DNA of 64,000 nucleotides from Candidatus Acidiferrales bacterium. Lineage in GTDB: Bacteria; Chloroflexota; Dormibacteria; Aeolococcales; Bog-877. This document shows positions 2,927 to 41,537 of the stretch, piece after piece. Each line of letters opens with the position of its first letter. Within the stretch, counting starts at the first letter, position 1. The stretch spans positions 1,988-65,987 of the forward strand of contig DATLTJ010000093.1 of NCBI GenBank assembly GCA_035533655.1. Direction: 5' to 3'. The notes below the pieces were generated by a model. The model was given only the letters and a program-made list of their open reading frames with translations. It did no database searches and was not told the DNA's origin. The translations under genes were made by a program, and so were the position numbers.

Positions 2927-5056
2927 TCAGCGCACCAAGAGCACGAGCACGAACACCGCCATCAGATAGAGCAGATAGAGGCTGACCTGACCAGACTGGA
3001 ATCGGCCGGCCACTGCAGAAATTCGCCGCGCTGCGTTGAGGATCGGTTGGTACGCGTAGGCGTCCACAGGCTCGACGACCCGCCGCAGGTAGCGAACTGA
3101 ATGGGCGAAGAAGGGTGCCTGGTGATAGTCGCGCTCGACAGCGCGCTGGTCGCGGAACACCCCGCCGAACGTTGATCGGAAGAGATTCGTGAAGGCGGTG
3201 GAGGTGTACTGCATAGCGGGCCGGTAGTCGCTTCCGGCACCGATCCAGACGGCCCTCTCGCGCCGGGTCCGGCGCCCCAGCAAGCGGAGCGCACCGGCGG
3301 TCAGCGCGATGATGCAGACCAGACTCAGGAAAATATAGGTGGGCGAAATGAAGGCATAGTTGAAGCTGGTGGGTACGATCACCATCCCGTTGGCGTGGAG
3401 GATCTGGCTGAGGAACGTTCCCCCCACCTGAATCGGCAGAGCGAACTGGGCCGGGTGCAGAAAGAACGGCGGCAGCAGCGAATTGAGCAGGCCCGGTACA
3501 TGGGTGGCGCCCTCCGCAGACGCCACGGCCGCCCCGATCCCGAGTGGGGGTAGCAAGGCCGTGATCACCGCGACGCCAGCGGTCACCAGCATGCCCAGCC
3601 GCATGGTGACGGGCACCTCGACGGCTTGCGCCGCCCGACGGCTGCGGGGGGCTCCCAGGAAGGCGCCGCCAAAGACGCGGATGTAGGCGGTCGCCGCCAG
3701 CGCGAAGGTCAGCGTGAGCAGCATGCCCGCGGCGGCCATGTAAACCCGGCTTTCCGGAGTGTCGAGCACGCGGGCACGGATGAGCATCTGCAAGCCTAGC
3801 CATTCGGTCTGGAACCCATTCAAAGGTGGGACTCCAGCCAGACCCATCGCCCCGATGAAAAACAGAATGGTGGTCCACCGCATGCGCCGAGCCAGGCCGC
3901 CGAGACGGTCCATGTCGAGGCCGCGGGCACCCACGTCGACGCAGCCGGCGCCCATGAACAACGTGCTCTTGAGCAGGGCGTGGTAGAGCGCATGGAGGAT
4001 GACCACCACCAGCGCCGCCGCCGCGAGCAGGCGGTGGTGGCTGCTGGCGAAGACCAGTGCCACGCCCAGCATCGCCACCATAAACCCCAGGTTCTCGATG
4101 GTGCTGTAGGCCAGCATTCGCTTGAGATTCGGCACCAGCAAGGAGAACAGCACTCCGTACGCGGCGGTCACCACGCCCACGCCCAGAGCCAGGTAGCCCC
4201 ACCAATCGGCCGGCGAGGGGAGCAGGGTGACGACGGTCAGCGTCAAGCCGTAGATGCCCATCGAGACCACGATGCCCGAGAGGGCCGCGGATACGTTGGC
4301 CGGAGCGGCGGGATGGGCCTCAGGGAGCCAACCCTGCAGCGGTACCAATCCCGCCTTGACGCCGAACCCCACCAGAAAGAGTACGAATGCGACCGAGGCG
4401 AGCGCCCCACTCGCCACCGGGTGGTGGGCCAGAGTTGCGAACGAAACCCCCGCCCGAAGGGCTCCTACCGCGATGAAGCCAACCGCCATCGCGATGAAGC
4501 CGATCTTGGCCAGCGCCAGCATCAGGAAGGCGGCTTGGGGGCGCCCCGGGCGATCGAACTCCAAGGTGACCAGGATGTAGGTGGCACTCACCATCACCTC
4601 CCAGGCCAAAAGGAAGGTGAAACCGTTGGCGGCGGCCAGCACCAGCAGGATCGAGGCGAAGCTGAGGTTGAGCAAACTGTGCAGGCTGGCCTGGCGGCTC
4701 GGCCCGCCCACGTGGGGGGCGTATCCCGCGGTATAGAGGGAGATCCCCGTACCGACCACGCCGCTCAGCAGTAGAAAGGTCCCCGCCAGCGGGGTCGCTC
4801 GGAAAGCCAGACCTCCGAGCGGCGTGCTGATCGGCATGGTCAGGCTGGCCTGGGCACCTCCCAGCCACATGGCGGCGGTGACTACGACCAGCAACCCGGC
4901 GCCTATCGCCGCCGCCACCGAGAGATCAGCCAGGAAGCGCCAGCGCAGGACGCCCAGTCCGAGCAAGCCGGCCAGGGCATAGCAGGCCACCGCCGCCGCC
5001 AGCAACTCAAGTGCCACCAGGGGCCTCCTGGTCGGCGCGGTACCGTTCGGTGGCAC
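2927..5056 (-). CDS. NuoL/HyfB/HycC-like antiporter-type membrane subunit of hydrogenase-like complex
   Basis: 709-aa polytopic protein with the Mrp/NuoL core pattern (GWLPEAHPAAPANVSAALSGIVVSMGIYG, LKRMLAYSTIENLGFM, HALYHALLKSTLFMGAG). It is the last gene of the operon. The start is uncertain: the annotated start overlaps the upstream gene by 50 nt, and an alternative Val codon lies near 5017. Confidence 0.85.
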   Translation of the reverse strand: MPPNGTAPTRRPLVALELLAAAVACYALAGLLGLGVLRWRFLADLSVAAAIGAGLLVVVTAAMWLGGAQASLTMPISTPLGGLAFRATPLAGTFLLLSGVVGTGISLYTAGYAPHVGGPSRQASLHSLLNLSFASILLVLAAANGFTFLLAWEVMVSATYILVTLEFDRPGRPQAAFLMLALAKIGFIAMAVGFIAVGALRAGVSFATLAHHPVASGALASVAFVLFLVGFGVKAGLVPLQGWLPEAHPAAPANVSAALSGIVVSMGIYGLTLTVVTLLPSPADWWGYLALGVGVVTAAYGVLFSLLVPNLKRMLAYSTIENLGFMVAMLGVALVFASSHHRLLAAAALVVVILHALYHALLKSTLFMGAGCVDVGARGLDMDRLGGLARRMRWTTILFFIGAMGLAGVPPLNGFQTEWLGLQMLIRARVLDTPESRVYMAAAGMLLTLTFALAATAYIRVFGGAFLGAPRSRRAAQAVEVPVTMRLGMLVTAGVAVITALLPPLGIGAAVASAEGATHVPGLLNSLLPPFFLHPAQFALPIQVGGTFLSQILHANGMVIVPTSFNYAFISPTYIFLSLVCIIALTAGALRLLGRRTRRERAVWIGAGSDYRPAMQYTSTAFTNLFRSTFGGVFRDQRAVERDYHQAPFFAHSVRYLRRVVEPVDAYAYQPILNAARRISAVAGRFQSGQVSLYLLYLMAVFVLVLLVR

Positions 5057-5849
5057 GTCCCACGGCCAGCAAGAGCCCGTGCAGGAGTGCCTGGGGGGTC
5101 GGGGGACAGCCCGGCACGTAGGCGTCCACCTGGAGGAGCTGGTCCAGCGGCCCCACCGTCATGGGACCACCGGCAAAGCTGCCGCAGCTGACGGCGCAGG
5201 CGCCCGCCGCGATCACCAGTTTGGGAGCTGGCATGGCGGCGTACGTCGCCAGCAGGGTCTCCTTCATATTGCTGGTCACCACGCCCGTGACCAGCAGCGC
5301 ATCGGCGTGCCGCGGCGTGGGGGTGAAGAACAGCCCTAGTCGGTGCAGGTCGAGGTAAGGGGAGCTCAGCATCTGCAGTTCGGATTCGCAGCCGTTGCAG
5401 GAACCGGCATCCACGTGCCGGATATGCAGTGACCGGCGAAAGAGGCGGTAGGCACTCTGTTGGACAGCCGTTGACGCTTCCAGCAGCGATACCGGAGCTG
5501 GTGCCTGCCCTTCGCTCCACCGGAGAGTGGTCCGCAGGTGGTCGCGGCTCCGGACCGCCACCCGGGGATCGTCGACTCGCGTGAAGGCGGCGGGAAACTC
5601 GCGCGTGCAGCGCCCACAGAGAGTGCAGGCACCGGCGTCGAAGCGCAGCTCTCCGCTCGCATCGGTCCCGCGGGCTTCGATGGCTGCCGTGGGACAGAGC
5701 GAGCCGGCAGCCAGCGCTTGGCGGCCGGTCAGCCCCTGCCACCGCAGCCGGACGGCCGAGGGCGCCTCCTCCTCTCCGACAATCCTGCGATCCGGGAAGC
5801 GCGTGGTCCGAATACCGGTCCTGAGCCCCTTCACAATCCAGCGGCTCAT
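5007..5849 (-). CDS. fusion of a ferredoxin-like domain and a NuoB/HycG-like hydrogenase small subunit
   Basis: The C-terminal half has NuoB/HycG cluster motifs HVDAGSCNGCESE, AAGACAVSCG and VPGCPP. The N-terminal ~110 aa carries only one CxxCxxC (GACTLCGRCTREFP) plus one CP (SLCPTAAIE). Its ATG overlaps the stop of the upstream gene (ATGA at 5846-5849). Confidence 0.85.
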   Translation of the reverse strand: MSRWIVKGLRTGIRTTRFPDRRIVGEEEAPSAVRLRWQGLTGRQALAAGSLCPTAAIEARGTDASGELRFDAGACTLCGRCTREFPAAFTRVDDPRVAVRSRDHLRTTLRWSEGQAPAPVSLLEASTAVQQSAYRLFRRSLHIRHVDAGSCNGCESELQMLSSPYLDLHRLGLFFTPTPRHADALLVTGVVTSNMKETLLATYAAMPAPKLVIAAGACAVSCGSFAGGPMTVGPLDQLLQVDAYVPGCPPTPQALLHGLLLAVGRATERYRADQEAPGGT

Positions 5850-7393
5850 CGGTCGAACTCAGCCGGCGAGATCGAAAAGCTGGCCTCGATCACGGGGTAA
5901 TCGGTCAGGTTGTTGCCACTCCCACAGGCGTGGGCGAAGGGATGCCAGTTGACCACCGCCGGCGGTCGCGCTCGCCAGCGAAGCACCCGACCCTCCTGGT
6001 CCAGGTCCACCCAGTGAAGGGTCTCGCCGCCGGGGGCCTCAGCCCAACCGAGCCCGGAACCTGCGCGCCAACGGGGAGCCACCGGCTGCTCGGCGCCGGA
6101 CGGCCACCCGGCCAGCAGCTGCCGCATGATCGTCAGGGACTGCGCCAGTTCGGCGGCGTGCACCTGGAAGCGTGCCTCGGCGTCGCCATCGGCCACGGTG
6201 GGAACGTCGAATTCCACCGATCCGTAGGCAGCGTACGGGTGGTCCCGGCGCACGTCGCGGTCAATTCCGGACGCGCGTCCCACCGGTCCGACCAGGTTGT
6301 GCTCGGAGGCGTAGTCCGGCAGCAGGATCGCCGTCGTATCGAGCCGATCGACGAAGGTGGAAGTCTGCTCCAGCAGCCGTCTCAATCCCTCCGACCGCTC
6401 CCTCCACTCGTCCAATTGGGCTCTCAGTTGGTCGCGGGCTCCGGCCGCCAGCCCCAGCTCCAGGCCGCCGATTCGCAGGACTCCCCGGAGGTAGCGATGG
6501 CCGGTGAGCCGGCCGGCGGCCCGCAGAGCCTCCTCTTTGAGCAGGCTATATTGGGCGGCCGCCACCAGCAGTCCCGTGGCCTCGGCCAGCCGCCCGATGG
6601 TACCGAAGTGGTTATAGAGCCGCTCCAGTTCGCCGAGCAAGGCTCGGGTGTGCTCGGCGGTGGGGCCGACCGAGACTCCCACCGCCCGCTCCACCGCCCG
6701 GGTGAAAGCCAGCCCGTTGGCGAACCCGGAGGTGCCGGCCAGACGCTCGGCCAGCTGCAGTGCCCGATCGGCGGGCTGGCCTTCGGCGAATTTCTCGATC
6801 GCCCGGTACTTGAATCCGAGACGGACCTCCAATTCCACGATGTCCTCGCCGCCGGAGAAGAAGAGGAACTCCGCCGACTCTTGGGGTCCGCTGCGAACCG
6901 GGCCGAGAGGCAGCTGGAAGACTCCTTGTCCGGTAACGGCCAGCCGCGGCCTGACGTGCGGCGGGTGGGGAAATCGGCCCACCTCGGCTGGCCGATCGCG
7001 CATGGGCCGGTGTCCGACCGGCCAGCTGTGCAACCGCAGCCGATCGGGCGCCGGATGGCCGACCGGCTCGAGCCCATGCATCTCGAGGATTTCGCGCTCA
7101 TACCAGCTGGCCGCGTGCACCTCGGGCGTCAGCGAGGGGAATCGCATCGCGCCCAACTCGCTGGTGAGCAACAACCAGGCCGGATCCCCCGCCATCTGGA
7201 GGACCGCGGTTAGGCGGGGGGGTGCCGGGGGCGTGGTGGTGGCGAACAGGTCCGAGAGCGTGGCCCTGCCCACCAGGGCGCCGACCCGATCGCGGAACTC
7301 GCCTTCGGGGCAGTCAGCCCACGCTTCGTCGCCGCTCCGCCACTTGACCACCAGGCCCGCGCCCGACGCCAAGCGCTCGAGTGCGCTGCTCAT
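5846..7393 (-). CDS. HycE-like large subunit (NuoC-NuoD fusion) lacking Ni-Fe cysteine ligands
   Basis: The N-terminal part is NuoC-like (WYEREILEMHGLEPVGHP) and the remainder is NuoD/HycE-like (GPVRSGPQESAEFLFFSGGEDIVELEVRLGFKYRAIEK). The ligand motif positions read LAERLAGTSGFAN and SISPAEFDR-stop, with no Cys. The start was re-picked to ATG 7393, which forms an ATGA overlap with the stop of the upstream gene. Confidence 0.85.
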   Translation of the reverse strand: MSSALERLASGAGLVVKWRSGDEAWADCPEGEFRDRVGALVGRATLSDLFATTTPPAPPRLTAVLQMAGDPAWLLLTSELGAMRFPSLTPEVHAASWYEREILEMHGLEPVGHPAPDRLRLHSWPVGHRPMRDRPAEVGRFPHPPHVRPRLAVTGQGVFQLPLGPVRSGPQESAEFLFFSGGEDIVELEVRLGFKYRAIEKFAEGQPADRALQLAERLAGTSGFANGLAFTRAVERAVGVSVGPTAEHTRALLGELERLYNHFGTIGRLAEATGLLVAAAQYSLLKEEALRAAGRLTGHRYLRGVLRIGGLELGLAAGARDQLRAQLDEWRERSEGLRRLLEQTSTFVDRLDTTAILLPDYASEHNLVGPVGRASGIDRDVRRDHPYAAYGSVEFDVPTVADGDAEARFQVHAAELAQSLTIMRQLLAGWPSGAEQPVAPRWRAGSGLGWAEAPGGETLHWVDLDQEGRVLRWRARPPAVVNWHPFAHACGSGNNLTDYPVIEASFSISPAEFDR

Positions 7394-8874
7394 CGGCCAA
7401 CCACGTGACTGGCCCCCAACAGCAAGGAGTGCAGCGGAGCGGGAATCCACAAGCCGAGGATCAGCACCAGTGCCAAGAGCGCGAATCCCGGCGCGAGCAC
7501 CGGGAATCCCAGATCAGCTCGGGGCTGCGCCGGCTGGGCATCGCCGTCGCCGAAGGTCATCCGGCTGAAGGGCGCAACCAGGGCGATGAACCCGACCAAA
7601 AGGAGGGTGGCGATCAGGGCGCCGGCACCCCAGTCCGGTTGACCTAGTGCGCCGCGCACGATCGAGAATTCGGAGACGAATAGGCCAAAGGGAGGCGCTC
7701 CCCCGATGGCGAGGGCGCCCACTATGACCAGCGCCGCAGTAGCCGGGGCCACCCGCACCGCGCCACGGATCTCCGCGATGGTGGTGGTCCGAAAACGTAG
7801 CAGCAGATTGCCCGAGGCAAAGAACATGAGCGTCTTGGCCAAGCTGTGGGTGAGCATCTGGAGCAAGGCTCCGACCACGGCCAGCGGGGCTCCAATCCCG
7901 AAGCCCGCGGCGATAAGACCCATCTGCTCTACTGACGAGTAGGCGAGCAGCCGCTTGAAGTTCCGTTGCGAGATCAGGAATACGACCCCCACGGTCATCG
8001 ATAGCAGACCGAATCCGAGCATCGCCCGGTGGAGATCCTCGGCGTGACTGCCGGCCGACGGGGTGGCCAGGGACAGGACACGGACGATGGCCAGCATGGC
8101 GCAGTTCAACTCGGCTCCCGACAGCATGGCGCACACGGGCGCGGGAGCCTGGCTGTGCGCATCTGGCAGCCAGGTATGCATGGGCGCCAGACCGGCCTTG
8201 GTGCCGAAGCCCACCAGAACCAGCAGGAAACCCAGCCCCGCCAGGGACGGCGACAGGTGGGAGCCCGCGGCAGCTAGCACTGGGATGGAGAAGTTGTACG
8301 CGGATCCCAGCGCAGCGATGCCGGACGCGTACAGCAGCAGAAAGCCAAGGAGCGCAATTAGCTCGCCCGCGACCGCTAGGATTAGGAACTTCCAAGCCGC
8401 CTCCAGCGGCTCGCGGGAGCCGTAGAAATCGACCAGCGGAGCCGAGGCAAAGGTGGTGGCCGTTACCGCCGTCCAAAGCAGCGCCAGGTTGCCCGAAACG
8501 CTGGCCAGCACCATGGTGAAGGTGAAGAGGTGGAAGAGCGAAAAGTACTTTCGTAGCTCACCCGGTCGCAGCACATGGCCTTGCTCGGATGAGCGAAAGT
8601 AGGCGACCGAGAAGGCGCCAGCCAGGGCCGAGACGAACATCACCACCAGCAGCACGATGGCGTTGAGGTCGTCAAAGTAGAGCCAGTCGCCGAGGGCTTG
8701 CATCGGGCCCGCAGTGAGCAGCCGAGCGATCAGCGTCAGGGCCAACCCAAAGGTGATGAGCGAGCTCGGCACGACCATCTCATAGCGGGTACGGTCCTGA
8801 CGGACCACGGCGCTGGCGACCGCAGTCAGCAGCGGGACCGCCAGCAGGCAGAGCAACAGCGCGGAGTTGATCAT
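7390..8874 (-). CDS. NuoN/NuoM/HyfF-like antiporter-type membrane subunit
   Basis: 494-aa polytopic protein with motifs TKAGLAPMHTWLPDAHSQAPAPVCAMLSG, FKRLLAYSSVEQMG and HSLAKTLMFFASG. It shares an ATGA overlap with the upstream gene at 8871-8874. Confidence 0.85.
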   Translation of the reverse strand: MINSALLLCLLAVPLLTAVASAVVRQDRTRYEMVVPSSLITFGLALTLIARLLTAGPMQALGDWLYFDDLNAIVLLVVMFVSALAGAFSVAYFRSSEQGHVLRPGELRKYFSLFHLFTFTMVLASVSGNLALLWTAVTATTFASAPLVDFYGSREPLEAAWKFLILAVAGELIALLGFLLLYASGIAALGSAYNFSIPVLAAAGSHLSPSLAGLGFLLVLVGFGTKAGLAPMHTWLPDAHSQAPAPVCAMLSGAELNCAMLAIVRVLSLATPSAGSHAEDLHRAMLGFGLLSMTVGVVFLISQRNFKRLLAYSSVEQMGLIAAGFGIGAPLAVVGALLQMLTHSLAKTLMFFASGNLLLRFRTTTIAEIRGAVRVAPATAALVIVGALAIGGAPPFGLFVSEFSIVRGALGQPDWGAGALIATLLLVGFIALVAPFSRMTFGDGDAQPAQPRADLGFPVLAPGFALLALVLILGLWIPAPLHSLLLGASHVVGR

Positions 8875-9515
8875 CCCCGCAACCGAGTGAGCTCTGAGGT
8901 GTCCGTGCTGGAGACCTCCTGGTGCATGCGAGCGACCAAGAAACCCATCACCAGCACCGCGATCAGGACGTCCAGCACGATCGCGAATTCAATCAGTAAG
9001 CTGAGCCGGGGAGCCAGCACCAGGCCCACCAACAGGAGGCCGTTCTCCGCCGCCAACAACCCGGTGACCTGGAGGATGGCGTCGCGGCGGGCCGTGGTCG
9101 TGAACAGTCCTAGGAGCAGTACGGCCAAGGCGATCCCCAGCACCGATTCGGGTAGGAGCTGATGGGTGTAGGGAATCCGCGTGGCCGCGATGAAGCCGAT
9201 CAACGTCAACCCCGCCCCGATCAACAGGGCCGTGGGAAACCGGACAAAGTAGGAGGTTTCCCGTCCTCCGGCCAGGACGAACGTGGTACGCCGCCGCAGG
9301 ATCTGCGGGACGACCACGCCCTTGACGGCGATCGTCAGCAGGCCGAACAAAAGCAACTCCAGGAATCTGGAATCGGCGAACAGGGCGATCGCCACCCCTC
9401 CCAGCAACCACGACTGGACGGCATATGCCGAGACGGCGGCGCGCAGCTGGCGGGTGACGATGAAGGCGAAGGTGACTAGCAGGATCAGGGCGGCGAGGAT
9501 CACTTCAGCTAGCAC
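8871..9515 (-). CDS. HyfE-like small membrane subunit
   Basis: 214-aa protein of about 7 hydrophobic helices, sitting between the NuoH-like and NuoN-like genes as in hyf-type operons. There is no enzymatic motif, so the call rests on context and topology. Confidence 0.65.
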   Translation of the reverse strand: MLAEVILAALILLVTFAFIVTRQLRAAVSAYAVQSWLLGGVAIALFADSRFLELLLFGLLTIAVKGVVVPQILRRRTTFVLAGGRETSYFVRFPTALLIGAGLTLIGFIAATRIPYTHQLLPESVLGIALAVLLLGLFTTTARRDAILQVTGLLAAENGLLLVGLVLAPRLSLLIEFAIVLDVLIAVLVMGFLVARMHQEVSSTDTSELTRLRG

Positions 9516-9551
9516 GAAGCGCTCCCCCGAACGGGTACGTCGGCCGGCCCA

Positions 9552-10499
9552 TCAACGTCCCACCGTGTAGAGCACGAGTCCCAGGAAGGCCAGCACAAAA
9601 CTGCCTCCCAGGTATTCGGGGACGCGCAGGATGCGGATCTTGGCCAAGGCCGATTCGATGCCCACCAGCAGCACCGCGGCGCCCAACATCTTGGCGGCCA
9701 GGGTGGCGATAGCCACGAGGAAGGCGGGGAAGGCGATGGCATCGGCCAGCCCGAGCGGGAGGACCAGCACGTTGAGCCAGACGATCAGCAGGACAAAGAG
9801 CTTCATGAAGCCGCCCCACTCCATCAGAGCCTGATCGGGTCCGGAGAATTCGAAGAGGCGGGAGGACTCGATCATCGACAGTTCCTGGGGGCTGTTGGGG
9901 TTGTCGATGGGAAGGCGTCCCGCCTCCGCCAACACCACCATCAGAAACGCCGCGGCCACCAGCGCGTGGCTCGGAACGATGTGCGAGGCGCTCGTGAACA
10001 GCGCTCCGTTCACGACGAATGGGACGGTGCCTCCGGAGATGAAACCGACCGCAAAGAAGACCACGATGAAGGTCGGCTCCGCTAGCGAGGAGACGAAGCG
10101 CGAGCGGCTACCGCCCAGCCCGCCATACGGGCTGCCGCTGTCCATTGCCGCCAGATTGGTGAAGAATCCGCCGACGCCGATAACAAATCCGCTGCCCACC
10201 ATGTCCGCCATCAGCGCCCAGCTCAGCGGCATCGCTGTCAGCACCGGGATGAGCATGGCGAAGGCGATGGGGGTGGCGAACACTACATAGGGTGCGATCC
10301 GGAACAGGAACGATGCGTTGGGGGTGACCGTGCGTTCCTTGCCTAGTAGCTTCACCAGGTCGTAGTAGGGCTGCAGCGGCGAAGGACCACGGCGCGACTG
10401 AACTTTGCCTTTGAGATTTTCGATCACGCCCTTGAGCAGGGGCGCGAGCGCGACCACGGTCAGGATGGCGATGACCTGCCCGATGGCCGCCGCTAGCAC
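9552..10499 (-). CDS. NuoH/HycD/HyfC-like membrane subunit
   Basis: 315-aa first gene of the operon. NuoH/HycD-like pattern: VQSRRGPSPLQPYYDLVKLLGKE, PIDNPNSPQELSMIESSRLFEFSG. Confidence 0.85.
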   Translation of the reverse strand: MLAAAIGQVIAILTVVALAPLLKGVIENLKGKVQSRRGPSPLQPYYDLVKLLGKERTVTPNASFLFRIAPYVVFATPIAFAMLIPVLTAMPLSWALMADMVGSGFVIGVGGFFTNLAAMDSGSPYGGLGGSRSRFVSSLAEPTFIVVFFAVGFISGGTVPFVVNGALFTSASHIVPSHALVAAAFLMVVLAEAGRLPIDNPNSPQELSMIESSRLFEFSGPDQALMEWGGFMKLFVLLIVWLNVLVLPLGLADAIAFPAFLVAIATLAAKMLGAAVLLVGIESALAKIRILRVPEYLGGSFVLAFLGLVLYTVGR

Positions 10500-10797
10500 C
10501 GCTCTCTCGAAGTGCTGGCGATCGCGGGTAAAGTTCTGCTCAACGCCAGCCGGACGCTGAGGCGACGCCAGAACGGCAGCGGGGAGGACAACGCGGGGCT
10601 CCTTGCTCGACTTCTATCCAGATTGGGTAGAAGCCATCACCCGGGCAGGCCGGGTTACGCGGGCCTCATCGCGCTACGCGGACCATTTGTAGCGACCAGC
10701 GCTGCTCCGTGTCAAGCTAGGGACAGCCACTGGGGCGGTCGGGGCGGGTCCAGCTGCGGAGTTGGGGGCCAGAGCAACCGGAATTGAGGCGGGCTAG

Positions 10798-16899: not shown

Positions 16900-18636
16900 G
16901 TGACCATCACCGCCACTGTCGAACGCGCGACCCGGCCGATACCGACAGCCGGCCTCACCGCGGGGACGACCGGTGCCGAGTTGCTGCTGGCCGCCTTGAT
17001 CAAGGAGGGCGTGGACACGGTCTTCGGGATTCCCGGCGGCGCCAACCTGCCGATCTACCAGCACCTGCCCGACTTCCCTCTCCGGCACGTCCTGGTCCGG
17101 CATGAGCAAGGTGCGGCCCACATGGCCGATGGCTACGCCCGCGCCAGCGGCAAGGTGGGGGTGTGCGTGGCCACCTCCGGCCCCGGCGCCCTCAATCTGA
17201 TCACCGGGCTGGCCACCGCCCACTTCGACTCGGTGCCAGTGGTGGCGATCACCGGTCAGGTGGCGGCGGCCAGTATTGGTACCGACGCCTTTCAGGAGTC
17301 GGACGTGATCGGCTCCAGCCTCTCGGTGACGAAGCACAGCTACCAGGTCCTCGACGCCACGGACATCCCCGGAGTGGTCGCCGAGGCCTTCCACATCGCC
17401 CGCACCGGACGGCCTGGGGCGGTCCTCATCGACATCCCCAAGGACGTCCAGCAGCAGCGGATCGAGGTGGTCGCAGAGCCGATCCAGCGGCAGCGACCCC
17501 ACCGGGCACCTGGCCGGCCGGACCAATCCCAGCTGGCCCAGGCGGCGGACTTCCTGGCCCAGGCCGAGCGGCCGATGATCCTGGCGGGCCGGGGAGTCGC
17601 CATCTCGGGCGGCCAGGCCGCCCTGCGGGCGCTCGCCGAGGTCTGCGACGCCCCGGTGGGCACCACCCTTTTGGGAACTGGGATCTTCCCCAGCAGCCAT
17701 CCCCTGGCGCTGGGGTTGGTCGGCTTCATGGGCACCGGCTATTGCAACCGGGCGGTGACCAACTGCGACGTCCTGTTGATGGTGGGCATGCGGGCTGACG
17801 ACCGGGTCACCTGCCGGCTGGACGAGTTCGCACCCCGGGCGACTCACATCGTTCACATCAACATCGACCCGGCCGAGCTGGGCAAGACGGTCAAAGCAGA
17901 CTGCCAGATCGTCGGTGATGCGAAGGCCGCCCTGGAGGCGCTGACGGATCAGCTGGCCTTCCAGCCGCGGCCCGCCTGGCGCGCCCAGGTGGAGGCCTGG
18001 CGGGTCCAGCACCCCCTGCGTCATCCAGACAATGGGCTGCTCCAACCCCAGGAGGTGCTGGCCGCCTGCTACGCCCGGCTGGGGCCGGACGACATCACCG
18101 TCGCCGATGTGGGGCTGAACCAGATCTGGGCAGCGGTGGCCTGGACCGGAGATCGCCCGGGTCACTTCCTCAACTCCGGCGGGCAGGGGACCATGGGCTT
18201 CGCCCTCCCGGCCGCCATCGGGGCCCAGGCCGCATTTCCCGACCGCCGGGTGCTCAGCGTCAGCGGTGAGGGGGGCTTCGTGATGACCCTTCAGGAGCTG
18301 GCCACGGCGGTCGAGTCCCAGCTGCCGGTGAAGGCGATGGTCCTCAACAACCGCCAGCTGGGGATGGTTCGCCAGTTCCAGGACGACTTCTACGGTGGGG
18401 TGCGTTCCCAGGTCGACCATGTGCTCACCCCCGATTTCGTGATGCTGGCCCGGGCCTTCGGATGCTTCGGCGCGGTGGTCCGCCAGGCCAACGAGATCGG
18501 CCCGGCGCTGGACGCGGCCTTCGCCCATCCGGGGCCGGCGGTGATCGACTTCGAGATCGACCCCAACGCCAACGTGTACCCGATCGTCCCGCTCGGCAAG
18601 GGCCTCTCCGATTTCGTCGAGTGTCCGAGGTCGTAA
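16900..18636 (+). CDS. ilvB: acetolactate synthase large subunit
   Basis: 578 aa, a ThDP enzyme. Motifs: GVDTVFGIPGGANLPIY, RHEQGAAHMADGYARASGKVGVC, GGQGTMGFALPAAIGA, NNRQLGMVRQFQ. Confidence 0.95.
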   Translation: MTITATVERATRPIPTAGLTAGTTGAELLLAALIKEGVDTVFGIPGGANLPIYQHLPDFPLRHVLVRHEQGAAHMADGYARASGKVGVCVATSGPGALNLITGLATAHFDSVPVVAITGQVAAASIGTDAFQESDVIGSSLSVTKHSYQVLDATDIPGVVAEAFHIARTGRPGAVLIDIPKDVQQQRIEVVAEPIQRQRPHRAPGRPDQSQLAQAADFLAQAERPMILAGRGVAISGGQAALRALAEVCDAPVGTTLLGTGIFPSSHPLALGLVGFMGTGYCNRAVTNCDVLLMVGMRADDRVTCRLDEFAPRATHIVHINIDPAELGKTVKADCQIVGDAKAALEALTDQLAFQPRPAWRAQVEAWRVQHPLRHPDNGLLQPQEVLAACYARLGPDDITVADVGLNQIWAAVAWTGDRPGHFLNSGGQGTMGFALPAAIGAQAAFPDRRVLSVSGEGGFVMTLQELATAVESQLPVKAMVLNNRQLGMVRQFQDDFYGGVRSQVDHVLTPDFVMLARAFGCFGAVVRQANEIGPALDAAFAHPGPAVIDFEIDPNANVYPIVPLGKGLSDFVECPRS

Positions 18637-19234
18637 TGAGTCCCCCCGCCATCGTCGCCCCGCGGCTGGCCCCCGGCACCGACGGGCTGACCACCACCCG
18701 CCACCCCGGACGAATCCGGCTGATCTCGGTGCGGGTGGAGGACCGGCGCGGCGTCCTGCAGCGGGTCACCAACCTGCTGGGACGGCGTGGCTTCGGTATC
18801 GAGACCTGCGCGGTAGGCCCCAGCGCCGAGCCCGGGGTGGTGGCGATCAGCCTCCGCATTGACGCCGGCACCCAGGCTCATGACCAGATCGTCAAGCAGC
18901 TCAACAAGCTGATCGACGTGGTCAGTGTCGAGGACATCACCAGCTCCGCCACCGTGGAGTGGAGCACGGCCCTGATCGAGCTTCGCTCTGCCGACGTGGA
19001 CCCGGCTTTCGCCCGGTTGCCCAGTGGGGTGGGCAGCCAGGTGGTGCGGGAGGCGGGGACGCGGACCATCGCCGCGATCTGGGGACCGCCCGGTCCCGTG
19101 GAGGAAGCACTGGCGGAGTTGCGGCGCCGGCCCAATTCGAATTGGATCTGCAGCGGACCGCTGGCCATGGCCACGGCCTCCGCCGGGGGCTCCGGCCCCG
19201 TTTCAGCCCCGGACCCCGGAGGGAGGCCAGAGAG

Positions 19235-19238
<4 letters not shown>
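18636..19238 (+). CDS. ilvN: acetolactate synthase small (regulatory) subunit
   Basis: The ATG overlaps the ilvB stop (TAATG). ACT domain: [51 protein letters not shown]. It has a ~30-aa Pro/Gly-rich C-terminal tail. Confidence 0.9.
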
Positions 19239-20298
<1,060 letters not shown>

Positions 20299-20302
<4 letters not shown>

Positions 20303-21540
20303 GCTCGAAGGAGGGCTCAGTAGCCCCGGAAGGAAACGGGACCGCGCTGGGCGCCATGCCCGACATAGTCGAGTTCTTCGACACCACCCTGCGGGACGGC
20401 GAGCAGTGCCCGGGGGCCACCCTGCACCCGGCCGACAAGCTCCTGATCGCCCACCAGCTCAAGCGGCTTCAGGTCGACGTCATCGAGGCCGGATTTCCGT
20501 TCTCCTCACCGGGCGACTTCGCGGCGGTCCAGCAAATCGCCCGAGAGGTCCAGGGACCGGCGATCACCGGACTGGCCCGGACCAAGCGGAGCGACATCGA
20601 TGCGGTCTACCAGGCGGTCCGCGACGCGCCCCGGCACCTGATCCACGTCTTCATGAGCGTCTCCGACATCCACATCACCTACAAACTGGGACTGGATCGG
20701 GCCACCGTCCTCAGCCAGACGGCGGCGGCAATCGCCTACGCCAAGACCCTCTGCGACACCGTCCAGTTCTCCCCCGAGGACGCCGGCCGCGCCGATCTCG
20801 ACTACCTCTGCACCGTGGTCCAGGCTGCCGTCGACGCTGGGGCCAACGTGATCAACCTGCCCGACACGACCGGGTACTGCCTGCCCAGTGAGTTCCAGCA
20901 CCTGGTGGCGACGGTGCGCCAAGAGGTGCGGGGGATGGACCGGGTGCTGGTGAGCGTCCACTGCCACGACGACCTGGGGCTGGCGACCGCCAACTCGCTG
21001 GCGGGGATCGCCGCCGGGGCCAGGCGGGTCGAGGGCTGCATCAACGGCATCGGCGAGCGGGCCGGCAACGCCTCGATCGAGGAGATCCTGATGGCGCTCC
21101 GGGTGCGCCGCCCGGTTCTCGGTCTGGCCGACAACCTCTGCGCCACCGAGCTGGTGCCGACCAGCCGGCTGGTCGCCGAACTGACCGGGATGGTGGTGCC
21201 CGCCAACAAGCCGGTGGTGGGCTCCAACGCCTTCGCCCATGCCTCGGGAGTCCACCAGCACGGGGTTCTCCGCGACCGCCGCACCTACGAGATCATCGCT
21301 GCCGAGGACGTCGGTGCCGGTGAGTCCAAGATCGTCCTGACCGCCCGTTCCGGGCGCCACGCCCTGCGGCACCGGCTCGACCGGATCGGGGTGGAGTTAC
21401 CCCCAGAGTCCTTCCAGGCGGTCTGGACCCGCTTCCTGGAGGTGGCCGACACCTCCAAGGAGGTGGAGGACGAGACCCTGACCCAGATCGTGGGCGAGGT
21501 CTCCGTCGCCCAGGCCGCTCTGAGGCCGGCCCCCGGGTGA
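20299..21540 (+). CDS. leuA: 2-isopropylmalate synthase-like enzyme lacking the C-terminal LeuA-dimer/regulatory domain
   Basis: Motifs: [65 protein letters not shown]. The protein ends at 413 aa, right after subdomain II. GTGA overlaps occur at both ends. An alternative ATG start lies at 20356. Confidence 0.75.
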
Positions 21541-22622
21541 CCGAAGAGCAGAAGGCGCTCCGCCTCACCGTGCTGGCTGGCGACGGCATCGGTCCGGAGG
21601 TGACCGCGGCGGCGCTGCGGGTGCTGGAGGCCGCTCTGCGATCGGTCGGGATCGACCTGATCACGACCCAGCATCTGATCGGAGGGGTCGCCCTGGACCA
21701 AGCCGGAGACCCACTTCCGGAGGCCAGCCTGAATTCCGCGCGCGCCGCCGACGCCGTGTTCCTGGGCGCGGTCGGAGGACCCGCCTGGGATCAGGCTTCG
21801 GTGCGGCCCGAGGAGGGACTCCTCCGGCTGCGCTCGGGGCTGGGCGCCTTCGCCAACCTCCGCCCGGTTCGGGTCTGGCCGGGTCTGGAGAGCTACAGCC
21901 CGCTCCGGGCCGAGGTGCTCCAGGGCGCCGACCTGCTCTTCATCCGCGAGCTCACCGGCGGGATCTACTTCGGGCGGCCCAAGGGGGTCGCCGGCAAGGC
22001 GCCGCACCGCCACGCGGTGGACACCAGCGAGTACAGCGAGGCGGAGGTGCGCCGGACCGCTGAGGTGGCCTTCCGGGAGGCCCGGCAGCGCCGCTCCCGG
22101 GTCACCTCGGTGGACAAGGCCAACGTGCTGGCCACCTCCCAGCTCTGGCGCGAGGTGGTGACCGAGGTGGGCCAGAAGTTCCCGGACGTGGCCCTGGAGC
22201 ACTGCCTGGTGGACAGCTTCGCGCTCCGGCTGCTGCAGCAGCCGGGTGCCTTCGATGTGGTGGTTACCGAGAACCTCTTCGGCGACATCCTCACCGACGA
22301 GGCGGGCGCGCTCAGCGGCACGCTCGGGGTGCTCCCGTCCGCCAGCGGCGGCGGCGAGGGCCCCTGGCTCTACGAGCCGGTACACGGCTCGGCGCCGGAC
22401 ATCGCAGGCCAGGGAATCGCCAATCCGGTGGGGGCCATCGTCACCGTCGCCCTCTTGCTCCGGCTCACCCTCAAGCTCGATCAGCTGGCGGAAGTGGTGG
22501 AGCAGGCGGTCGGAGCGGTGATCGCTGAGGGCCGGCTCACCCCTGACCTAGGCGGCCGCGAGAGCACTGAATCGCTCACCGAGGCGGTGATCGAGCGGCT
22601 GCCGGTTGGGGCAACCGCATGA
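21537..22622 (+). CDS. leuB: 3-isopropylmalate dehydrogenase
   Basis: 361 aa. Motifs: LAGDGIGPEV, RELTGGIYFG, NLFGDILTDEAGALSGTLGVLPSAS, YEPVHGSAPDIAG. Confidence 0.95.
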   Translation: MTEEQKALRLTVLAGDGIGPEVTAAALRVLEAALRSVGIDLITTQHLIGGVALDQAGDPLPEASLNSARAADAVFLGAVGGPAWDQASVRPEEGLLRLRSGLGAFANLRPVRVWPGLESYSPLRAEVLQGADLLFIRELTGGIYFGRPKGVAGKAPHRHAVDTSEYSEAEVRRTAEVAFREARQRRSRVTSVDKANVLATSQLWREVVTEVGQKFPDVALEHCLVDSFALRLLQQPGAFDVVVTENLFGDILTDEAGALSGTLGVLPSASGGGEGPWLYEPVHGSAPDIAGQGIANPVGAIVTVALLLRLTLKLDQLAEVVEQAVGAVIAEGRLTPDLGGRESTESLTEAVIERLPVGATA

Positions 22623-24253
22623 ACTCAGCACAAGGCTGGCCCCAGCACCAGAATGAGACGGTCGCTCTCTACGACACCACCCTGCGCGACGGGATGCAGG
22701 GCTTCGGCCTCCAGCTCAGCATCGAGCAAAAGCTCCAGGTCGCCCGCCGCCTCGACGAGCTGGGGGTCGACTACGTCGAGGCTGGCTGGCCCGGGGCCAA
22801 TCCCCGGGACACGGCAGTCTTCGAGCAGCTGGCCAAGGCGCCCCTGCACCGCTCCCAGCTGGCCGCCTTCGGCTCAACCTGCCGCCCCGAGGTCGAGGCC
22901 GAGTTGGACCCGGGTCTCGCGCTGACCCTGAACTCCGGGGCCCCCGTGGTCACGGTGGTCGGTAAATCCTCCCGCTGGCAGGTGGAGACGGTGCTGCGCA
23001 CGACTCCCCAGGAGAACCTGCGCATGGTGGGGACTACCGTCATCTATGCGGTCGCCCAGGGTCGGGAGGTCATCTTTGACGCCGAGCACTTCTTCGACGG
23101 CCTCGGCCAGGACGAGGGGTATGCCCTGGCGGTGATCGAGACCGCAGCTCGGGCGGGCGCCCGCTGGGTGGTACTCTGCGACACCAACGGCGGCCAGCTT
23201 CCCACCGAGATCGGCCGGGCGACGGAGGCGGTGCGGGCCCGGCTGGAGGTACCGCTTGGGATCCATTGCCACAACGATGCGGGAGTCGCGGTAGCCAACT
23301 CCCTGGCCGCCGTGGAGGCCGGCGCCACCATGGTCCAGGGCACCGTCAATGGCAGCGGCGAGCGCTGCGGTAATGCCGACCTCCTGGTGATCGCCGCCAA
23401 CCTTCATCTGAAGATGGGGCGTCCGGTCCTGAGTCCCGAGCGACTGCGAGAGCTGGTCGGGGTGTCCCGACTCTTCGACGCCCTGGTCAACCGGGCCCCC
23501 GACCCCCACCGGCCCTACATGGGTCCGGCGGCCTTCCTGCACAAGGGAGGGCTTCACGCCCAGGCGGTGGCCCGGGATGAGCGCGCCTACCAGCACATCG
23601 ACCCGGCCCTGGTGGGGAACGAGGCCCGGACTGTGGTCTCCGACCAGAGCGGGAGGAGCAATGTCGCCAGCAAGCTGCACCAGCTTGGCCTGGCGGGACT
23701 GGACCGGGACGCGCGGGGATCCATCGTGGACCGGCTGAAGCAACTGGAGAACTCCGGCTGGGCCTTCGAGGACGCCGATGCCTCCTTCGAACTGCTGGTG
23801 ACCAGGGGAATTCCCGGCGATTCCGCACCTTTCGCGCTGCAGGAGTCGCTGGTGGTGGCCCACGAGACCTCGGCCCCACGGGCGGCTGAACCATCCCGGA
23901 GCGTTCACGCCAGCGTCAAGGTGCTGGTGGCCGGCACGGTGGTCGACACCGCCGCCGAGGCGGCCGGTCCGGTGGAGGCGCTCGACACCGCGCTGCGCCG
24001 GGCGCTGGCTCCCCACTTCCCCAGTCTGGCGTCGGTGAAGCTGGTGGACTACCGGGTCCGGGTGATCGACGGCGACCGGGGCACCGCGGCCACGGTGCGG
24101 GTGGGGATCGACTCCAGTGACGGCGAGCGGGTCTGGACCACGGTGGGCTGCTCGGCCAACATCCTCCAGGCGTCGGCGCTGGCGCTGGTCGACAGCTACG
24201 AGTGGGCGGCGCGGCACGCCGAATCTCTGGCCTGCCTCTCCCCCACCGCATGA
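22619..24253 (+). CDS. cimA: citramalate synthase-type (LeuA/CimA family, with C-terminal regulatory domain)
   Basis: The N terminus [48 protein letters not shown] matches the citramalate-synthase subfamily pattern as I recall it. The 544-aa length includes a LeuA-dimer-like C terminus. It shares an ATGA overlap with leuB. Confidence 0.7.
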
Positions 24254-24281
24254 GAACGCAAAGTTGCGCTCCCACAGCCTC

Positions 24282-25757: not shown

Positions 25758-25763
25758 GCCCAG

Positions 25764-26387
25764 ATGGAAGCCTTCACGGTGCACGAGGGACTCTGCGCGG
25801 CACTCAGCCGCGACGATGTCGACACCGATCAGATCATCCCCAAGCAATTCCTGAAGCGCACCGACCGGGGCGATTACGGAGCTGCCGGTTTCTTCGCCTG
25901 GCGCTACGACGACCAGGGCCAGCTGCGCAACGACTTCGAGCTCAACAACCCAATCTATCAAGGCGCCAGCATCCTGGTCACGGGACGAAACTTTGGCTGC
26001 GGTTCGTCGCGAGAACATGCGGTGTGGGCGCTCGTCGGGATGGGCTTCAGCGTGGTCATCGCGCCGTCCTTCGCCGACATCTTCACCGCCAACGCGCTCC
26101 AGAACGGCCTGCTTCCGGTGCAGCTGGCGGCCGATGTGGTGGCCGGTCTGCGCGAGCGGGCGACGGCGGGCGGCTACCGGCTGGCGGTCGACCTCGAGAA
26201 CCAGCAGGTGCGGGACCATGGGGGCCCGATCGCCGAGTTCGCCATCGACTCCTTCTGGCGGGACTGTCTGCTCAGCGGGCGCGATCCGATCGCCCTGGCG
26301 CTCAGCCACGAAGTCGCGATCGCCGACTTCGAGGGGAGACGGCCCGGGTGGCGCCCAGTAACCACTGCCGAAGGGCTCTTCGCGTGA
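25764..26387 (+). CDS. leuD: 3-isopropylmalate/citramalate dehydratase small subunit
   Basis: 207 aa. Motifs: DVDTDQIIPKQFLK, GRNFGCGSSREHAVWAL, VIAPSFADIF. Confidence 0.95.
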   Translation: MEAFTVHEGLCAALSRDDVDTDQIIPKQFLKRTDRGDYGAAGFFAWRYDDQGQLRNDFELNNPIYQGASILVTGRNFGCGSSREHAVWALVGMGFSVVIAPSFADIFTANALQNGLLPVQLAADVVAGLRERATAGGYRLAVDLENQQVRDHGGPIAEFAIDSFWRDCLLSGRDPIALALSHEVAIADFEGRRPGWRPVTTAEGLFA

Positions 26388-33091: not shown

Positions 33092-33357
33092 CCCCTGCGG
33101 CCGAGCTCTTGACGAGCGGCCTGGACCGCCCAGGCGGCGCTGCGGATACTCTCCCAGTCGGCATCAGCCAACTCCTTTGGCACCGGGACCGAACCGGCGA
33201 GGGCGAGGAAGTCGGCAGCCTTCCGAACCTGAGCTCGGCCGAGCTCAGGCTCGATCTCGAAGAGCAGCTCGTCTCCGGGGTCCAGTCCCAGAGCGCGGCG
33301 GACGGCGACCGGGATGGTCACCTGCCCCTTGGAGGTGATGCGGGCGGAAGACCCCAT
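33088..33357 (-). CDS. vapB: type II antitoxin, AbrB/MazE/SpoVT family (VapB)
   Basis: 89 aa with the N-terminal swapped-hairpin motif ITSKGQVTIPVAVRRALGLDPGDEL. It lies directly upstream of vapC. Confidence 0.85.
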   Translation of the reverse strand: MGSSARITSKGQVTIPVAVRRALGLDPGDELLFEIEPELGRAQVRKAADFLALAGSVPVPKELADADWESIRSAAWAVQAARQELGRRG

Positions 33358-41527: not shown

Positions 41528-41537
41528 CCGCCAGACT

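Follow-up and report, generated by a model that had tools for sequence, protein, structure and literature searches.

A six-gene operon for a hydrogenase-like membrane complex

The window (the whole stretch of DNA analysed, 64 kb) carries at 2927-10499 on the minus strand six co-directional genes in the order H-E-F-L-S-B (NuoH-, HyfE-, HyfF-, HycE-, HycG- and HyfB-like), and each of the six proteins has Pfam, NCBIfam or PDB matches that agree with the operon proposed in the original prediction. All features located below lie on the minus strand. The first gene (9552-10499) encodes a NuoH/HycD/HyfC-like membrane subunit of 315 aa (Pfam NADHdh, 1e-29; HycD 7z0s_D, E=6e-33), which links the peripheral and membrane arms. 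It is followed by a HyfE-like small membrane subunit (8871-9515; 214 aa; NCBIfam hydrogenase-4 membrane subunit, 2.5e-23), whose gene is conserved in 72 loci, a HyfF/NuoN-like antiporter-type subunit (7390-8874; 494 aa), a HycE/NuoCD-like large subunit without Ni-Fe ligands (5846-7393; 515 aa), a small subunit fusing a HycF(NuoI)-like to a HycG/NuoB-like part (5007-5849; 280 aa) and a HyfB/HycC/NuoL-like antiporter-type subunit (2927-5017; 696 aa). The ATGA start/stop overlaps at 8874/8871, 7393/7390 and 5849/5846 can be read directly in the sequence, as had been claimed. The start of the large-subunit gene was corrected from the longest-ORF GTG 7450 to ATG 7393, yielding 515 aa identical to a database protein (P0001), and the HyfB-like gene most likely begins at GTG 5017 behind AGGAGG (696 aa) rather than at 5056.

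All six reading frames are intact, and comparison with the closest relatives reveals purifying selection on every gene (dN/dS 0.04-0.19), in line with the earlier description of an apparently intact operon. The NuoH-like gene is the most constrained (dN/dS 0.04-0.05), the peripheral genes also show clear purifying selection (0.13-0.19), and constraint on the membrane subunits is 2-4 times that on the peripheral ones. Neither frameshifts nor dN/dS near 1 were seen in close relatives, and six-gene synteny is maintained across several phyla. Since all six genes are under purifying selection, the operon is not a decaying relic. The loss of the catalytic site described below and the faster evolution of the large subunit than of the membrane subunits could be read as marks of a non-functional evolutionary remnant; we hold this to be scarcely credible in view of the six intact frames with overlapping stop/start codons, the low dN/dS values, the shared synteny and the dedicated riboswitch control.

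In the two antiporter-like subunits, the charged transmembrane residues are conserved, with the exception of the HyfF TM5 Glu and the TM8 Lys, the latter replaced in both. The HyfB/HycC/NuoL-like subunit keeps E140 (TM5), K221 (TM7), K350 (TM11) and E405 (TM12). The HyfF/NuoN-like subunit keeps K226 (TM7), K347 (TM11) and E402 (TM12), while its TM5 Glu is replaced by Thr138 and a clade-specific Glu255 is found in TM8.

The large subunit has lost the Ni-Fe site

Residue-by-residue alignment with E. coli HycE (7z0s_E, E=2.9e-57) places HycE RVCGICGFAH opposite RLAGTSGFAN, and HycE DPCYSCTDR opposite SISPAEFDR at the very C terminus. The ligand positions are therefore occupied by A219, S222, S509 and E512. 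The motifs RxCGxCxxxH and DPCxxCxxR are both missing, so that the absence of all Ni-Fe cysteines, originally called by eye, stands in a proper alignment. No Cys is found at these positions in the 120 closest database homologues, in 75 of 81 aligned large subunits (the query and 80 loci) or in any of 23 riboswitch-linked large subunits. The overall fold appears to be retained: an AlphaFold model of the subunit (pLDDT 88) has HycE as its best PDB match (TM 0.92).

The large subunit keeps Glu172 in the β1-β2 loop and H262, R373 and E415 on the proton path, and carries Gly455 at the canopy Arg position, a substitution typical of this clade. The position of Nqo4 Y87 is Gly220 and not Tyr, and the residue aligned with the β1-β2 loop His of complex I (H38) is Gln171, with no His in the loop. 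The former active-site pocket contains neither the hydrogenase residues nor the quinone residues of complex I. In the alignment, the large subunit also ends where HycE is processed, at what we take to be the C-terminal processing site. From these features, the complex is predicted to be unable to make hydrogen.

The surroundings of the operon agree with this picture. Pfam annotation of the whole window confirms the claimed lack of hyp, endopeptidase, formate dehydrogenase and NuoEFG genes: neither hyp nor hycI was found, nor any gene for formate dehydrogenase, NuoEFG or a further Nuo subunit; NuoA, NuoJ, NuoK or another input module are likewise absent from operon and window. FdhF, HycB, hyp and hycI are neither present in the window nor conserved within 10 kb either side of related loci, and in none of about 80 loci is the operon linked to a gene for an electron donor or acceptor. 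A canonical nuo operon, the alternative originally considered, does not fit a locus with no NuoD quinone-site residues and no adjacent nuo genes. A genuine formate hydrogenlyase (FHL) or hydrogenase is what the fluoride-riboswitch literature and some pipelines annotate, with database names such as "Ni,Fe-hydrogenase III large subunit" and "formate hydrogenlyase subunit 5/7" and with reviews calling the riboswitch-linked operons FHL. We regard this as extremely improbable, given that the four Ni-Fe cysteines are absent in the window and in 23/23 riboswitch-linked homologues, that FdhF, HycB, hyp and hycI are missing nearby, and that the large subunit stops at the presumed HycE processing position.

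The small subunit retains a short iron-sulfur wire

The proximal cluster had been recognized in the small subunit, while its N-terminal HycF/NuoI-like domain had been overlooked. Residues 1 to about 110 form this domain (profile against HycF 7z0s_F, E=1.4e-19), which keeps one 4Fe-4S site with ligands C52, C75, C78 and C81. Residues ~136-272 form the HycG/NuoB-like domain, in which all four claimed proximal-cluster ligands are present (C151, C154, C218 and C248); almost every related locus shares them, C248 being Asp in two. The ligands lost are exactly those of the second HycF cluster, and both complete 4Fe-4S sets are present in every fused homologue aligned. With one of the two HycF clusters and the proximal cluster kept, a two-cluster electron wire is left. 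Loss of the second HycF cluster should not break this wire, if that cluster is placed as we assume from the T. thermophilus complex I structure.

Taken together, the subunit set of a group-4/FHL-2 hydrogenase, the missing ligands, the retained proximal cluster and the lack of maturation or input genes nearby support the earlier view that the operon encodes an Ehr complex, a putative descendant of group-4 [NiFe]-hydrogenases (Hyf/FHL-2-like) without a Ni-Fe site.

The operon leader contains a fluoride riboswitch motif

Whereas the Ehr reading of the operon holds, a fluoride riboswitch in its leader had escaped the original prediction. A promoter-like pair at 10686-10715, read from the sequence, consists of TTGACA (10715-10710), an 18-nt spacer and TACAAA (10691-10686); a consensus scan missed it because its rule demands that the -10 hexamer have T at position 6. 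Two related loci (L004 and L014) share TTGACA and the spacing. From this tentative promoter, transcription would begin only a few bases upstream of the riboswitch. Downstream of this site, on the same strand as the operon and 121 nt ahead of the start codon of the NuoH-like gene, lies an element (10620-10682) that we identify, based on Rfam (crcB motif, RF01734), our own covariance model and its pseudoknot, as a fluoride riboswitch aptamer. P1 is formed by 10674-10670 with 10661-10657, the P2 hairpin spans 10654-10640, and the pseudoknot pairs GAGGCC (10667-10662) with GGCUUC (10635-10630); both GAUG motifs can be read directly.

The window aptamer scores 25.6 bits with the full Rfam model (E=3.8e-5), below the gathering score of 34, and 75 bits with our own covariance model; for copies at the corresponding site of related operons, Rfam gives 48.6-57.6 bits. 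Covariation supports P1, the second hairpin and the pseudoknot: across copies, 90% of cells are paired compared with 77% in shuffles, a level that none of 500 shuffles attains. For the pseudoknot, which the search model did not include, pairing amounts to 98%, and three of the six pairs show compensatory changes.

The minimum-free-energy fold contains an alternative hairpin, GGCUUCUA-loop-UAGAAGUC (10609-10635), which takes the 3' pseudoknot strand and is therefore mutually exclusive with the fluoride-bound fold. Its stem is conserved and its loops are variable in four related loci (L004, L005, L008 and L014). The window copy has no U tract, and Chloroflexota copies carry a classic terminator with a U tract at the same place. 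We consider this hairpin a candidate expression platform.

Related operons with the same gene order share the riboswitch and occur in fluoride islands

Among related loci with the order H-E-F-L-S-B, 23 of 25 have the riboswitch 50-260 nt upstream of the first gene, and these span at least four phyla, including Dormibacterota, Chloroflexota and Alphaproteobacteria; no copy was found in front of some 50 loci with the order B-H-E-F-L-S. In the same loci, further riboswitch-preceded genes encode MutS-domain proteins, a dynamin-like protein, a universal stress protein (USP), PP2C phosphatases and DUF190. On the Burkholderia cenocepacia conjugative plasmid NZ_CP073671, the same operon, likewise Cys-less, lies between pyrophosphatase/HAD/DUF190 genes and crcB with a CLC channel gene, in an island with seven riboswitches at the Rfam gathering score. 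No crcB or CLC-F gene is present in the 64-kb window.

These observations bear on whether the complex might be a housekeeping oxidoreductase from ferredoxin, or another donor, to menaquinone, that is, a minimal complex I with no special fluoride link. The architecture resembles ferredoxin-dependent NDH-1 and Fpo-like complexes, the complex retains a NuoI-type entry cluster as well as the proximal one, and the host lineages are described as mostly aerobic soil bacteria. However, the riboswitch is conserved at the operon across phyla and the operon occurs in fluoride islands, the quinone-ligating NuoD Tyr and His are absent, and Gly takes the place of the canopy Arg/Lys on which quinone reduction by complex I depends; moreover, Ehr complexes are found in lineages reported to lack quinone synthesis (PMC6349859). 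We therefore judge a minimal complex I to be quite improbable.

A proposed role in fluoride stress

Both cytoplasmic pH and the proton-motive force are reported to fall under fluoride stress (PMC11139923). HF would diffuse in and F- leave via Fluc or CLC-F, a proton-leaking futile cycle that would acidify the cytoplasm and drain the proton-motive force. We propose, at somewhat better than even confidence, that the complex is a fluoride-induced, redox-linked proton/cation translocator supporting pH and proton-motive-force homeostasis. The riboswitch would control transcription or translation of the operon, such that the complex is made when cytoplasmic fluoride rises. A soluble, ferredoxin-like carrier of low potential may deliver electrons to the exposed NuoI-type cluster of the small-subunit N-terminal domain, from where they would pass via the proximal cluster, the other half of the short wire, to an acceptor other than H+. 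The retained four-subunit, complex-I-like membrane arm would translocate ions, and electron transfer through this auxiliary, redox-driven translocator may thereby restore membrane potential and pH. In this proposal, gene content, ligand loss, cluster ligands, purifying selection, the riboswitch with its taxonomic spread and the fluoride-island context are observed; we infer that fluoride induces the operon, which way the ions move and what donates and accepts the electrons.

A secondary, Mrp-like cation/proton antiporter, in which the peripheral arm is structural or acts as a redox sensor gating antiport with no net electron flow, would account for the membrane subunits being the most constrained, for the degenerate pocket and for the lack of a linked partner or acceptor gene. 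Na+/H+ antiporters are also the second most common gene class tied to the fluoride riboswitch (PMC11139923). It is harder to reconcile with the conservation of both 4Fe-4S ligand sets in every fused homologue aligned, with the loss of precisely the cluster that, by homology, should leave the wire unbroken, and with purifying selection on the peripheral genes (dN/dS 0.13-0.19). In addition, neither operon nor window encodes MrpB, C, E, F or G homologues, only the two MrpA/D-type subunits being present. Such an antiporter thus appears unlikely, though a more serious contender than a minimal complex I. The riboswitch provides the operon with a specific regulatory and physiological context, and its position in front of the operon suggests fluoride stress as the condition for testing function.

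Comparison with known systems

The E. coli FHL-1 (Hyc, PDB 7Z0S) and Hyf/FHL-2 (group 4a) complexes give the best sequence and fold matches for every subunit, namely HycE, HycD, HycC, HycG and HycF. The HycE proton-path residues E193, H284, R395 and E437 are conserved, and, as in Hyf, two antiporter-like subunits and HyfE are present. Unlike E. coli FHL, the complex lacks the Ni-Fe ligands, the canopy Arg and Asp, and HycB/FdhF; its HycF and HycG parts form a single protein, and the HycF part, which is without the C-terminal metal site, carries one cluster where E. coli HycF has two. The core of NuoB/C/D/H/I and antiporter-like subunits is common to the operon, complex I, ferredoxin-dependent NDH-1 and Pyrococcus MBH/MBS. 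In contrast to complex I, there is no quinone-site His/Tyr and no NuoA/J/K/E/F/G, and only two Fe-S clusters are predicted. Similarly to Pyrococcus MBS, the complex is hydrogenase-derived and predicted to make H2 no longer, but the extra Mrp-type subunits of MBH/MBS are missing.

Relatives with cysteines (Desulfosporosinus and Negativicutes; L040, L044, L054, L061, L070 and L076), which probably correspond to group 4f of the literature, contain the same six gene families and share with the query the fused HycF-HycG small subunit and the NuoH-loop motif D-N-P-x-T-H-L-E. They are only ~36% identical to the query and differ from it in that the four Cys are all in place, as are the canopy Arg and both HycF clusters, and in that the order is B-H-E-F-L-S with no riboswitch found.

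The kind of complex is not new, since the Ehr class has been known since 2005 and has been reported in the Chloroflexi supergroup by a study covering Dormibacteraeota. Geobacter sulfurreducens GSU0739-45, the six-gene clusters described in Sulfobacillus and M. tuberculosis Rv0082-Rv0087 have the same subunit families, with a large subunit without the L1/L2 CxxC motifs and a small subunit that keeps its cluster. As the original prediction held, the Ehr literature gives no demonstrated substrate. Differently from known Ehr complexes, the small subunit here carries a one-cluster HycF/NuoI domain and the gene order is H-E-F-L-S-B; that of M. tuberculosis is, we believe, S-B-H-E-F-L with an ArsR-type regulator. 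We found no mention in the Ehr literature of fluoride riboswitch control.

In the fluoride literature, the crcB motif was found upstream of "formate hydrogen lyase" genes (PMC2864571), and operons of this name are among the commonest riboswitch-associated enzymes (PMC11139923). There, the operon is taken as a true FHL signalling a shift to fermentation, whereas the 23/23 cases here are Cys-less Ehr operons. Because they lack both the Ni-Fe ligands and a neighboring formate dehydrogenase, the name is wrong. The leader here has the crcB-motif architecture of the known fluoride riboswitch regulon (crcB, eriC-F, enolase, pyrophosphatase, Na+/H+ antiporters, mutS and "formate hydrogen lyase"), and the neighboring riboswitch-controlled genes in related loci are its classic set.

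A compact six-gene Ehr operon is maintained

The six tightly packed genes on the minus strand (2927–10499, in a window of about 67% GC) were identified using Pfam, NCBIfam and searches against solved structures. In transcriptional order they encode a NuoH/HycD-like subunit (9552–10499), a HyfE-like subunit (8871–9515), an antiporter-type HyfF/NuoN-like subunit (7390–8874), a HycE/NuoCD-like large subunit of 515 residues (from ATG 7393), a HycG/NuoB-like small subunit (5007–5849) and a HyfB/HycC/NuoL-like subunit, which on reading the sequence probably starts at GTG 5017 behind AGGAGG. [quoted passage not shown] Two starts need adjusting relative to the earlier calls, namely that of the HyfB-like gene and that of the large subunit, which now matches an identical database protein.

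The Ehr name reportedly comes from work on Geobacter, and Marreiros et al. published a survey of these complexes in 2013. Six-gene clusters without ligand cysteines have been described in Sulfobacillus (PMC4378227), and Ehr complexes also in comammox Nitrospira, in Margulisbacteria and relatives, in M. tuberculosis, and in the Chloroflexi supergroup by a study covering Dormibacteraeota. Each of these papers gives their function as unknown.

The nearest relatives of the operon are almost exclusively Candidatus Dormibacterota MAGs. A record 100% identical to the window protein (P0001/P0121) is labelled 'Candidatus Acidoferrales bacterium', and the related locus L005 'Micrarchaeaceae archaeon'; as every close relative is from Dormibacterota, these are probably mis-binned or mislabelled contigs. 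Measured against the closest relatives with dS below 1, dN/dS is 0.04–0.05 for the NuoH-like gene, 0.05–0.12 for the other three membrane genes and 0.13–0.19 for the two peripheral (large- and small-subunit) genes. Every gene of the operon is maintained, with the membrane part the most constrained, and on these ratios we reject the idea that the operon is a relic.

The large subunit has lost the Ni–Fe site

The top sequence match of the large subunit is E. coli HycE (E=2.9e-57), and its AlphaFold model (pLDDT 88, pTM 0.91) superimposes best on HycE (TM 0.92) and second best on the fused NuoCD of complex I. The alignment places RLAGTSGFAN opposite HycE RVCGICGFAH, and the C-terminal SISPAEFDR opposite DPCYSCTDR. 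The loss of the Ni–Fe cysteines, first read from the motifs alone, is thereby borne out residue by residue, with A219, S222, S509 and E512 at the ligand positions. None of the four ligand cysteines is found in the 120 nearest database homologues, and all four occur in just 6 of 80 related genome loci, from Desulfosporosinus and Negativicutes. These six are genuine hydrogenases, built from six gene families identical to those of the operon.

We mapped the pocket residues given in the formate hydrogenlyase (FHL) structure paper (PMC9474812) onto the family. Four residues do not vary: the Glu of the β1–β2 loop (E172) and, along the proton path, H262, R373 and E415. Nearly every Cys-less relative has lost the canopy Asp, and Gly455 stands in for the canopy Arg in the Dormibacterota clade. 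The complex I quinone ligands are likewise absent, with Gly220 aligned at Nqo4 Y87 and Gln171 at H38. The pocket therefore suits neither the chemistry of a hydrogenase nor quinone reduction of the canonical type. On the ligand and quinone-site residues, we reject both a true hydrogenase and a canonical complex I.

The small subunit carries a HycF/NuoI-like extension

The proximal-cluster cysteines C151, C154, C218 and C248 are kept in the small subunit and in nearly all relatives, C248 being Asp in two. The protein also has a 135-residue N-terminal extension, overlooked in the original prediction. A profile of this domain matches HycF over its full length (residues 1–111 of chain F in the E. 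coli FHL-1 structure, 7z0s_F; E=1.4e-19) and also NuoI/NdhI (about 1e-10), the N-terminal amphipathic segment included. Some relatives, true hydrogenases among them, have two complete CxxCxxCxxxCP motifs, while the proteins of Dormibacterota and Acidobacteriota retain only the CP cysteine of motif 1 (C52) and the CxxCxxC of motif 2 (C75, C78, C81). In two-cluster ferredoxin folds, these four positions bind one cluster, which by homology with Nqo9 in the T. thermophilus structure would be of the N6b type, adjoining N2. If this assignment holds, two clusters are left as a wire linking the protein surface with the former active site.

A fluoride riboswitch precedes the operon

Aligning the leaders of close relatives revealed conserved blocks, and a permissive Rfam search (351 nt) returned a full-length match to the fluoride riboswitch (crcB motif, RF01734) at 10621–10682 on the minus strand (25.6 bits, E=3.8e-5). 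The gathering score of RF01734 is 34, and it is because the window copy falls below this score that the routine Rfam scan of the whole window gave zero matches. For pre-operon copies in four related loci (L016, L058, L068 and L083), Rfam's own model reaches 48.6–57.6 bits.

The related clusters occur in two gene orders. Dormibacterota, Chloroflexota, Alphaproteobacteria and a few others have H-E-F-L-S-B (NuoH-like, HyfE-like, HyfF-like, large, small and HyfB-like subunits); Acidobacteriota, Methanoperedens, Methanomassiliicoccales and the Cys-containing Firmicutes have B-H-E-F-L-S. With our own covariance model, built from nine aptamers, 23 of the 25 H-first loci with upstream sequence show an aptamer 50–260 nt ahead of their first gene, and none of the roughly 50 B-first loci does. 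Dormibacterota account for twelve (12/12 loci), with five strong and seven weaker matches, the latter sharing the position of the strong ones and having complementary pseudoknot strands. The others are four Chloroflexota/Ktedonobacteria, three Alphaproteobacteria and the loci L052, L058, L065 and L078. The pseudoknot was left out of the covariance model and hence serves as an independent test: over 46 sequences it is 98% paired, with compensatory changes at three of six pairs. Ligand-position cysteines are absent from all riboswitch-linked large subunits (23/23).

The Chloroflexota aptamers are followed by a classic terminator whose stem takes up the 3' aptamer strand. Dormibacterota have an equivalent competing hairpin (10609–10635 in the window) with no U tract, for which reason we only infer the mode of regulation in the window. 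Consensus promoter and terminator scans and a tRNA scan of the window returned nothing informative.

Between the riboswitch and the NuoH-like start (10500–10605, minus strand), AAGGAG (10604–10599) is followed by TTG (10591), which opens a 32-codon frame ending at a TAG that overlaps the NuoH start (GTGCTAG). The AGGAG and TTG are conserved in the loci L004 and L005; the leader peptide is not, and the stop of the frame is forced by the conserved ATG-CTA-GC start region. This frame is at most a candidate for a translated leader used in coupling.

Neighbouring genes reveal no redox partner

The original prediction had reported the window to be free of maturation and input-module genes, and Pfam annotation agrees: no hyp, hycI, formate dehydrogenase, NuoEFG or further nuo genes are found in the 64 kb. 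Clustering the ORFs within ±10 kb of about 80 loci likewise yielded no recurring redox partner (ferredoxin, formate dehydrogenase, NuoEFG or oxidoreductase). The sole recurring neighbours are ArsR regulators (Acidobacteriota), universal stress protein (USP) genes (archaea, after the small subunit in 19 loci), and MutS-like, dynamin-like, enolase and MFS genes. The ArsR-family gene lies just upstream of the B-first cluster in 11 Acidobacteriota loci (e.g., L072, 4050–4481), a position resembling that of the ArsR-type Rv0081 upstream of the M. tuberculosis Ehr cluster. This distribution suggests different regulatory inputs for the two Ehr subfamilies.

Some loci carry a second set of related genes. 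In four Methanomassiliicoccales loci (L024, L028, L035 and L037) the Cys-less six-gene cluster is directly followed by a second complex I-like set, with F, H, S and L matches at 27–42% identity, possibly an Fpo-like complex. A Dormibacterota-like contig (L007, 11284–17045, minus strand) has a second, inverted paralogous cluster of F, L, S and B, 33–54% identical to the first.

The remaining window genes comprise ilv/leu and thr biosynthesis, transporters and regulators. By Pfam, a branched-chain amino-acid cluster (ilvB-, ilvC-, leuA/cimA-, leuB- and leuCD-like) spans 16900–26387 on the plus strand, and aspartate kinase, two PLP-dependent (PALP-family) enzymes and aspartate-semialdehyde dehydrogenase lie at 40247–46561; these biosynthesis genes are ordinary housekeeping context. 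At 26–30 kb, where an amino-acid permease and a hydrolase are located, GC drops to 0.63. At 32687–33357 (minus strand), a PIN-domain gene and its small upstream partner ORF form a probable VapBC-type toxin–antitoxin pair.

Some Ehr operons reside in fluoride islands

A human blood isolate is the source of the conjugative B. cenocepacia plasmid NZ_CP073671.1, on which a 19-kb fluoride island (93094–112377) holds seven fluoride riboswitches at the Rfam gathering score, one of them directly before the NuoH-like gene. The large subunit encoded there (ERVSGVDSFAQ ... GLTIAGCAR) is without ligand cysteines. At one end of its operon lie genes for an inorganic pyrophosphatase, a HAD hydrolase and DUF190; at the other are crcB and the genes for a histidine phosphatase and a CLC-family channel. 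A dynamin-family protein is also encoded in the island. Similar matches are found in B. multivorans and in Caballeronia sp. SBC1/SBC2.

Across the riboswitch-linked loci, riboswitches also precede MutS-domain-V pairs and genes for a dynamin-like GTPase, USP, PP2C phosphatases and DUF190. A weaker riboswitch match lies ahead of an MFS transporter gene, and enolase genes are nearby. Locus L083 (2316–6590) has three fluoride riboswitches; two of these follow one another upstream of the Ehr operon, with a 151-aa ORF that has no Pfam match between them. In L013 (5568–5629 and 13953–14006), divergent riboswitches serve a MutS-like pair and the Ehr operon, and a further one serves a USP gene just 3' of the latter.

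The crcB motif has been described upstream of mutS, K+/Cl− transport and "formate hydrogen lyase" genes (Weinberg et al. 2010, PMC2864571). The last are listed in the fluoride-resistance literature among the most frequent riboswitch-controlled operons and read there as a shift to fermentation. Among the papers covered by our searches, none connects Ehr with fluoride. Three elements are new: the operon belongs to the fluoride regulon; every riboswitch-linked "FHL" operon examined encodes a Cys-less Ehr complex and consequently cannot be a hydrogenlyase; and the Dormibacterota clade has a one-cluster HycF–HycG fusion together with a further degenerated, more acidic pocket.

A possible role in offsetting the HF/F− leak

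Fluoride stress involves an influx of the weak acid HF, which lowers the proton-motive force and cytoplasmic pH, and export by Fluc or CLC-F depends on that same force (PMC11139923). For this reason, the most economical mechanism would be that the complex is induced to offset the HF/F− proton leak, acting as an auxiliary redox-driven proton or cation translocator. We infer this offsetting role, as well as which way transport runs and what the donor and acceptor are.

The main rival is a redox-independent antiporter role. In the membrane arm, four residues of the HyfB-like subunit (TM5 Glu, TM7 Lys, TM11 Lys and TM12 Glu) are retained across all loci, and the last three of these are also kept in the HyfF-like subunit. 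The TM5 Glu of the latter, invariant elsewhere, is replaced by Thr or Ser in Dormibacterota alone (T138 in the window protein). This clade also has a Glu of its own in TM8 (E255), two residues ahead of the Lys position; Leu, Val or Met occupies that site in other clades. From the alignment, it looks as if the buried carboxylate has been relocated from TM5 to TM8.

Going beyond an auxiliary redox-driven translocator, this Ehr subfamily could be a dedicated fluoride-resistance machine and not a general energy converter, which we consider improbable. In the strongest version, redox chemistry would power a primary transporter, and its remodelled acidic pocket (E175, E512 and the Gly replacing the canopy Arg) or its membrane arm would itself handle fluoride, a Mg-fluoride species or HF. 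In a weaker one, the complex may be the obligatory energiser of Fluc/CLC-F export, spread via mobile fluoride islands.

Since 2005, Ehr complexes have to our knowledge formed an orphan branch within the complex I/hydrogenase superfamily, none having a known substrate, partner or inducing condition. The riboswitch makes this long-standing question of function directly testable: workers in bioenergetics gain fluoride as a defined inducer, culturable and plasmid-borne examples, and a concrete hypothesis of HF/F− leak compensation. For the fluoride field, the annotation in use for one of its commonest regulon members is corrected. In sum, our results suggest that the Ehr complexes and the riboswitch-linked "formate hydrogen lyase" operons are the same objects, and that these are not hydrogenlyases.
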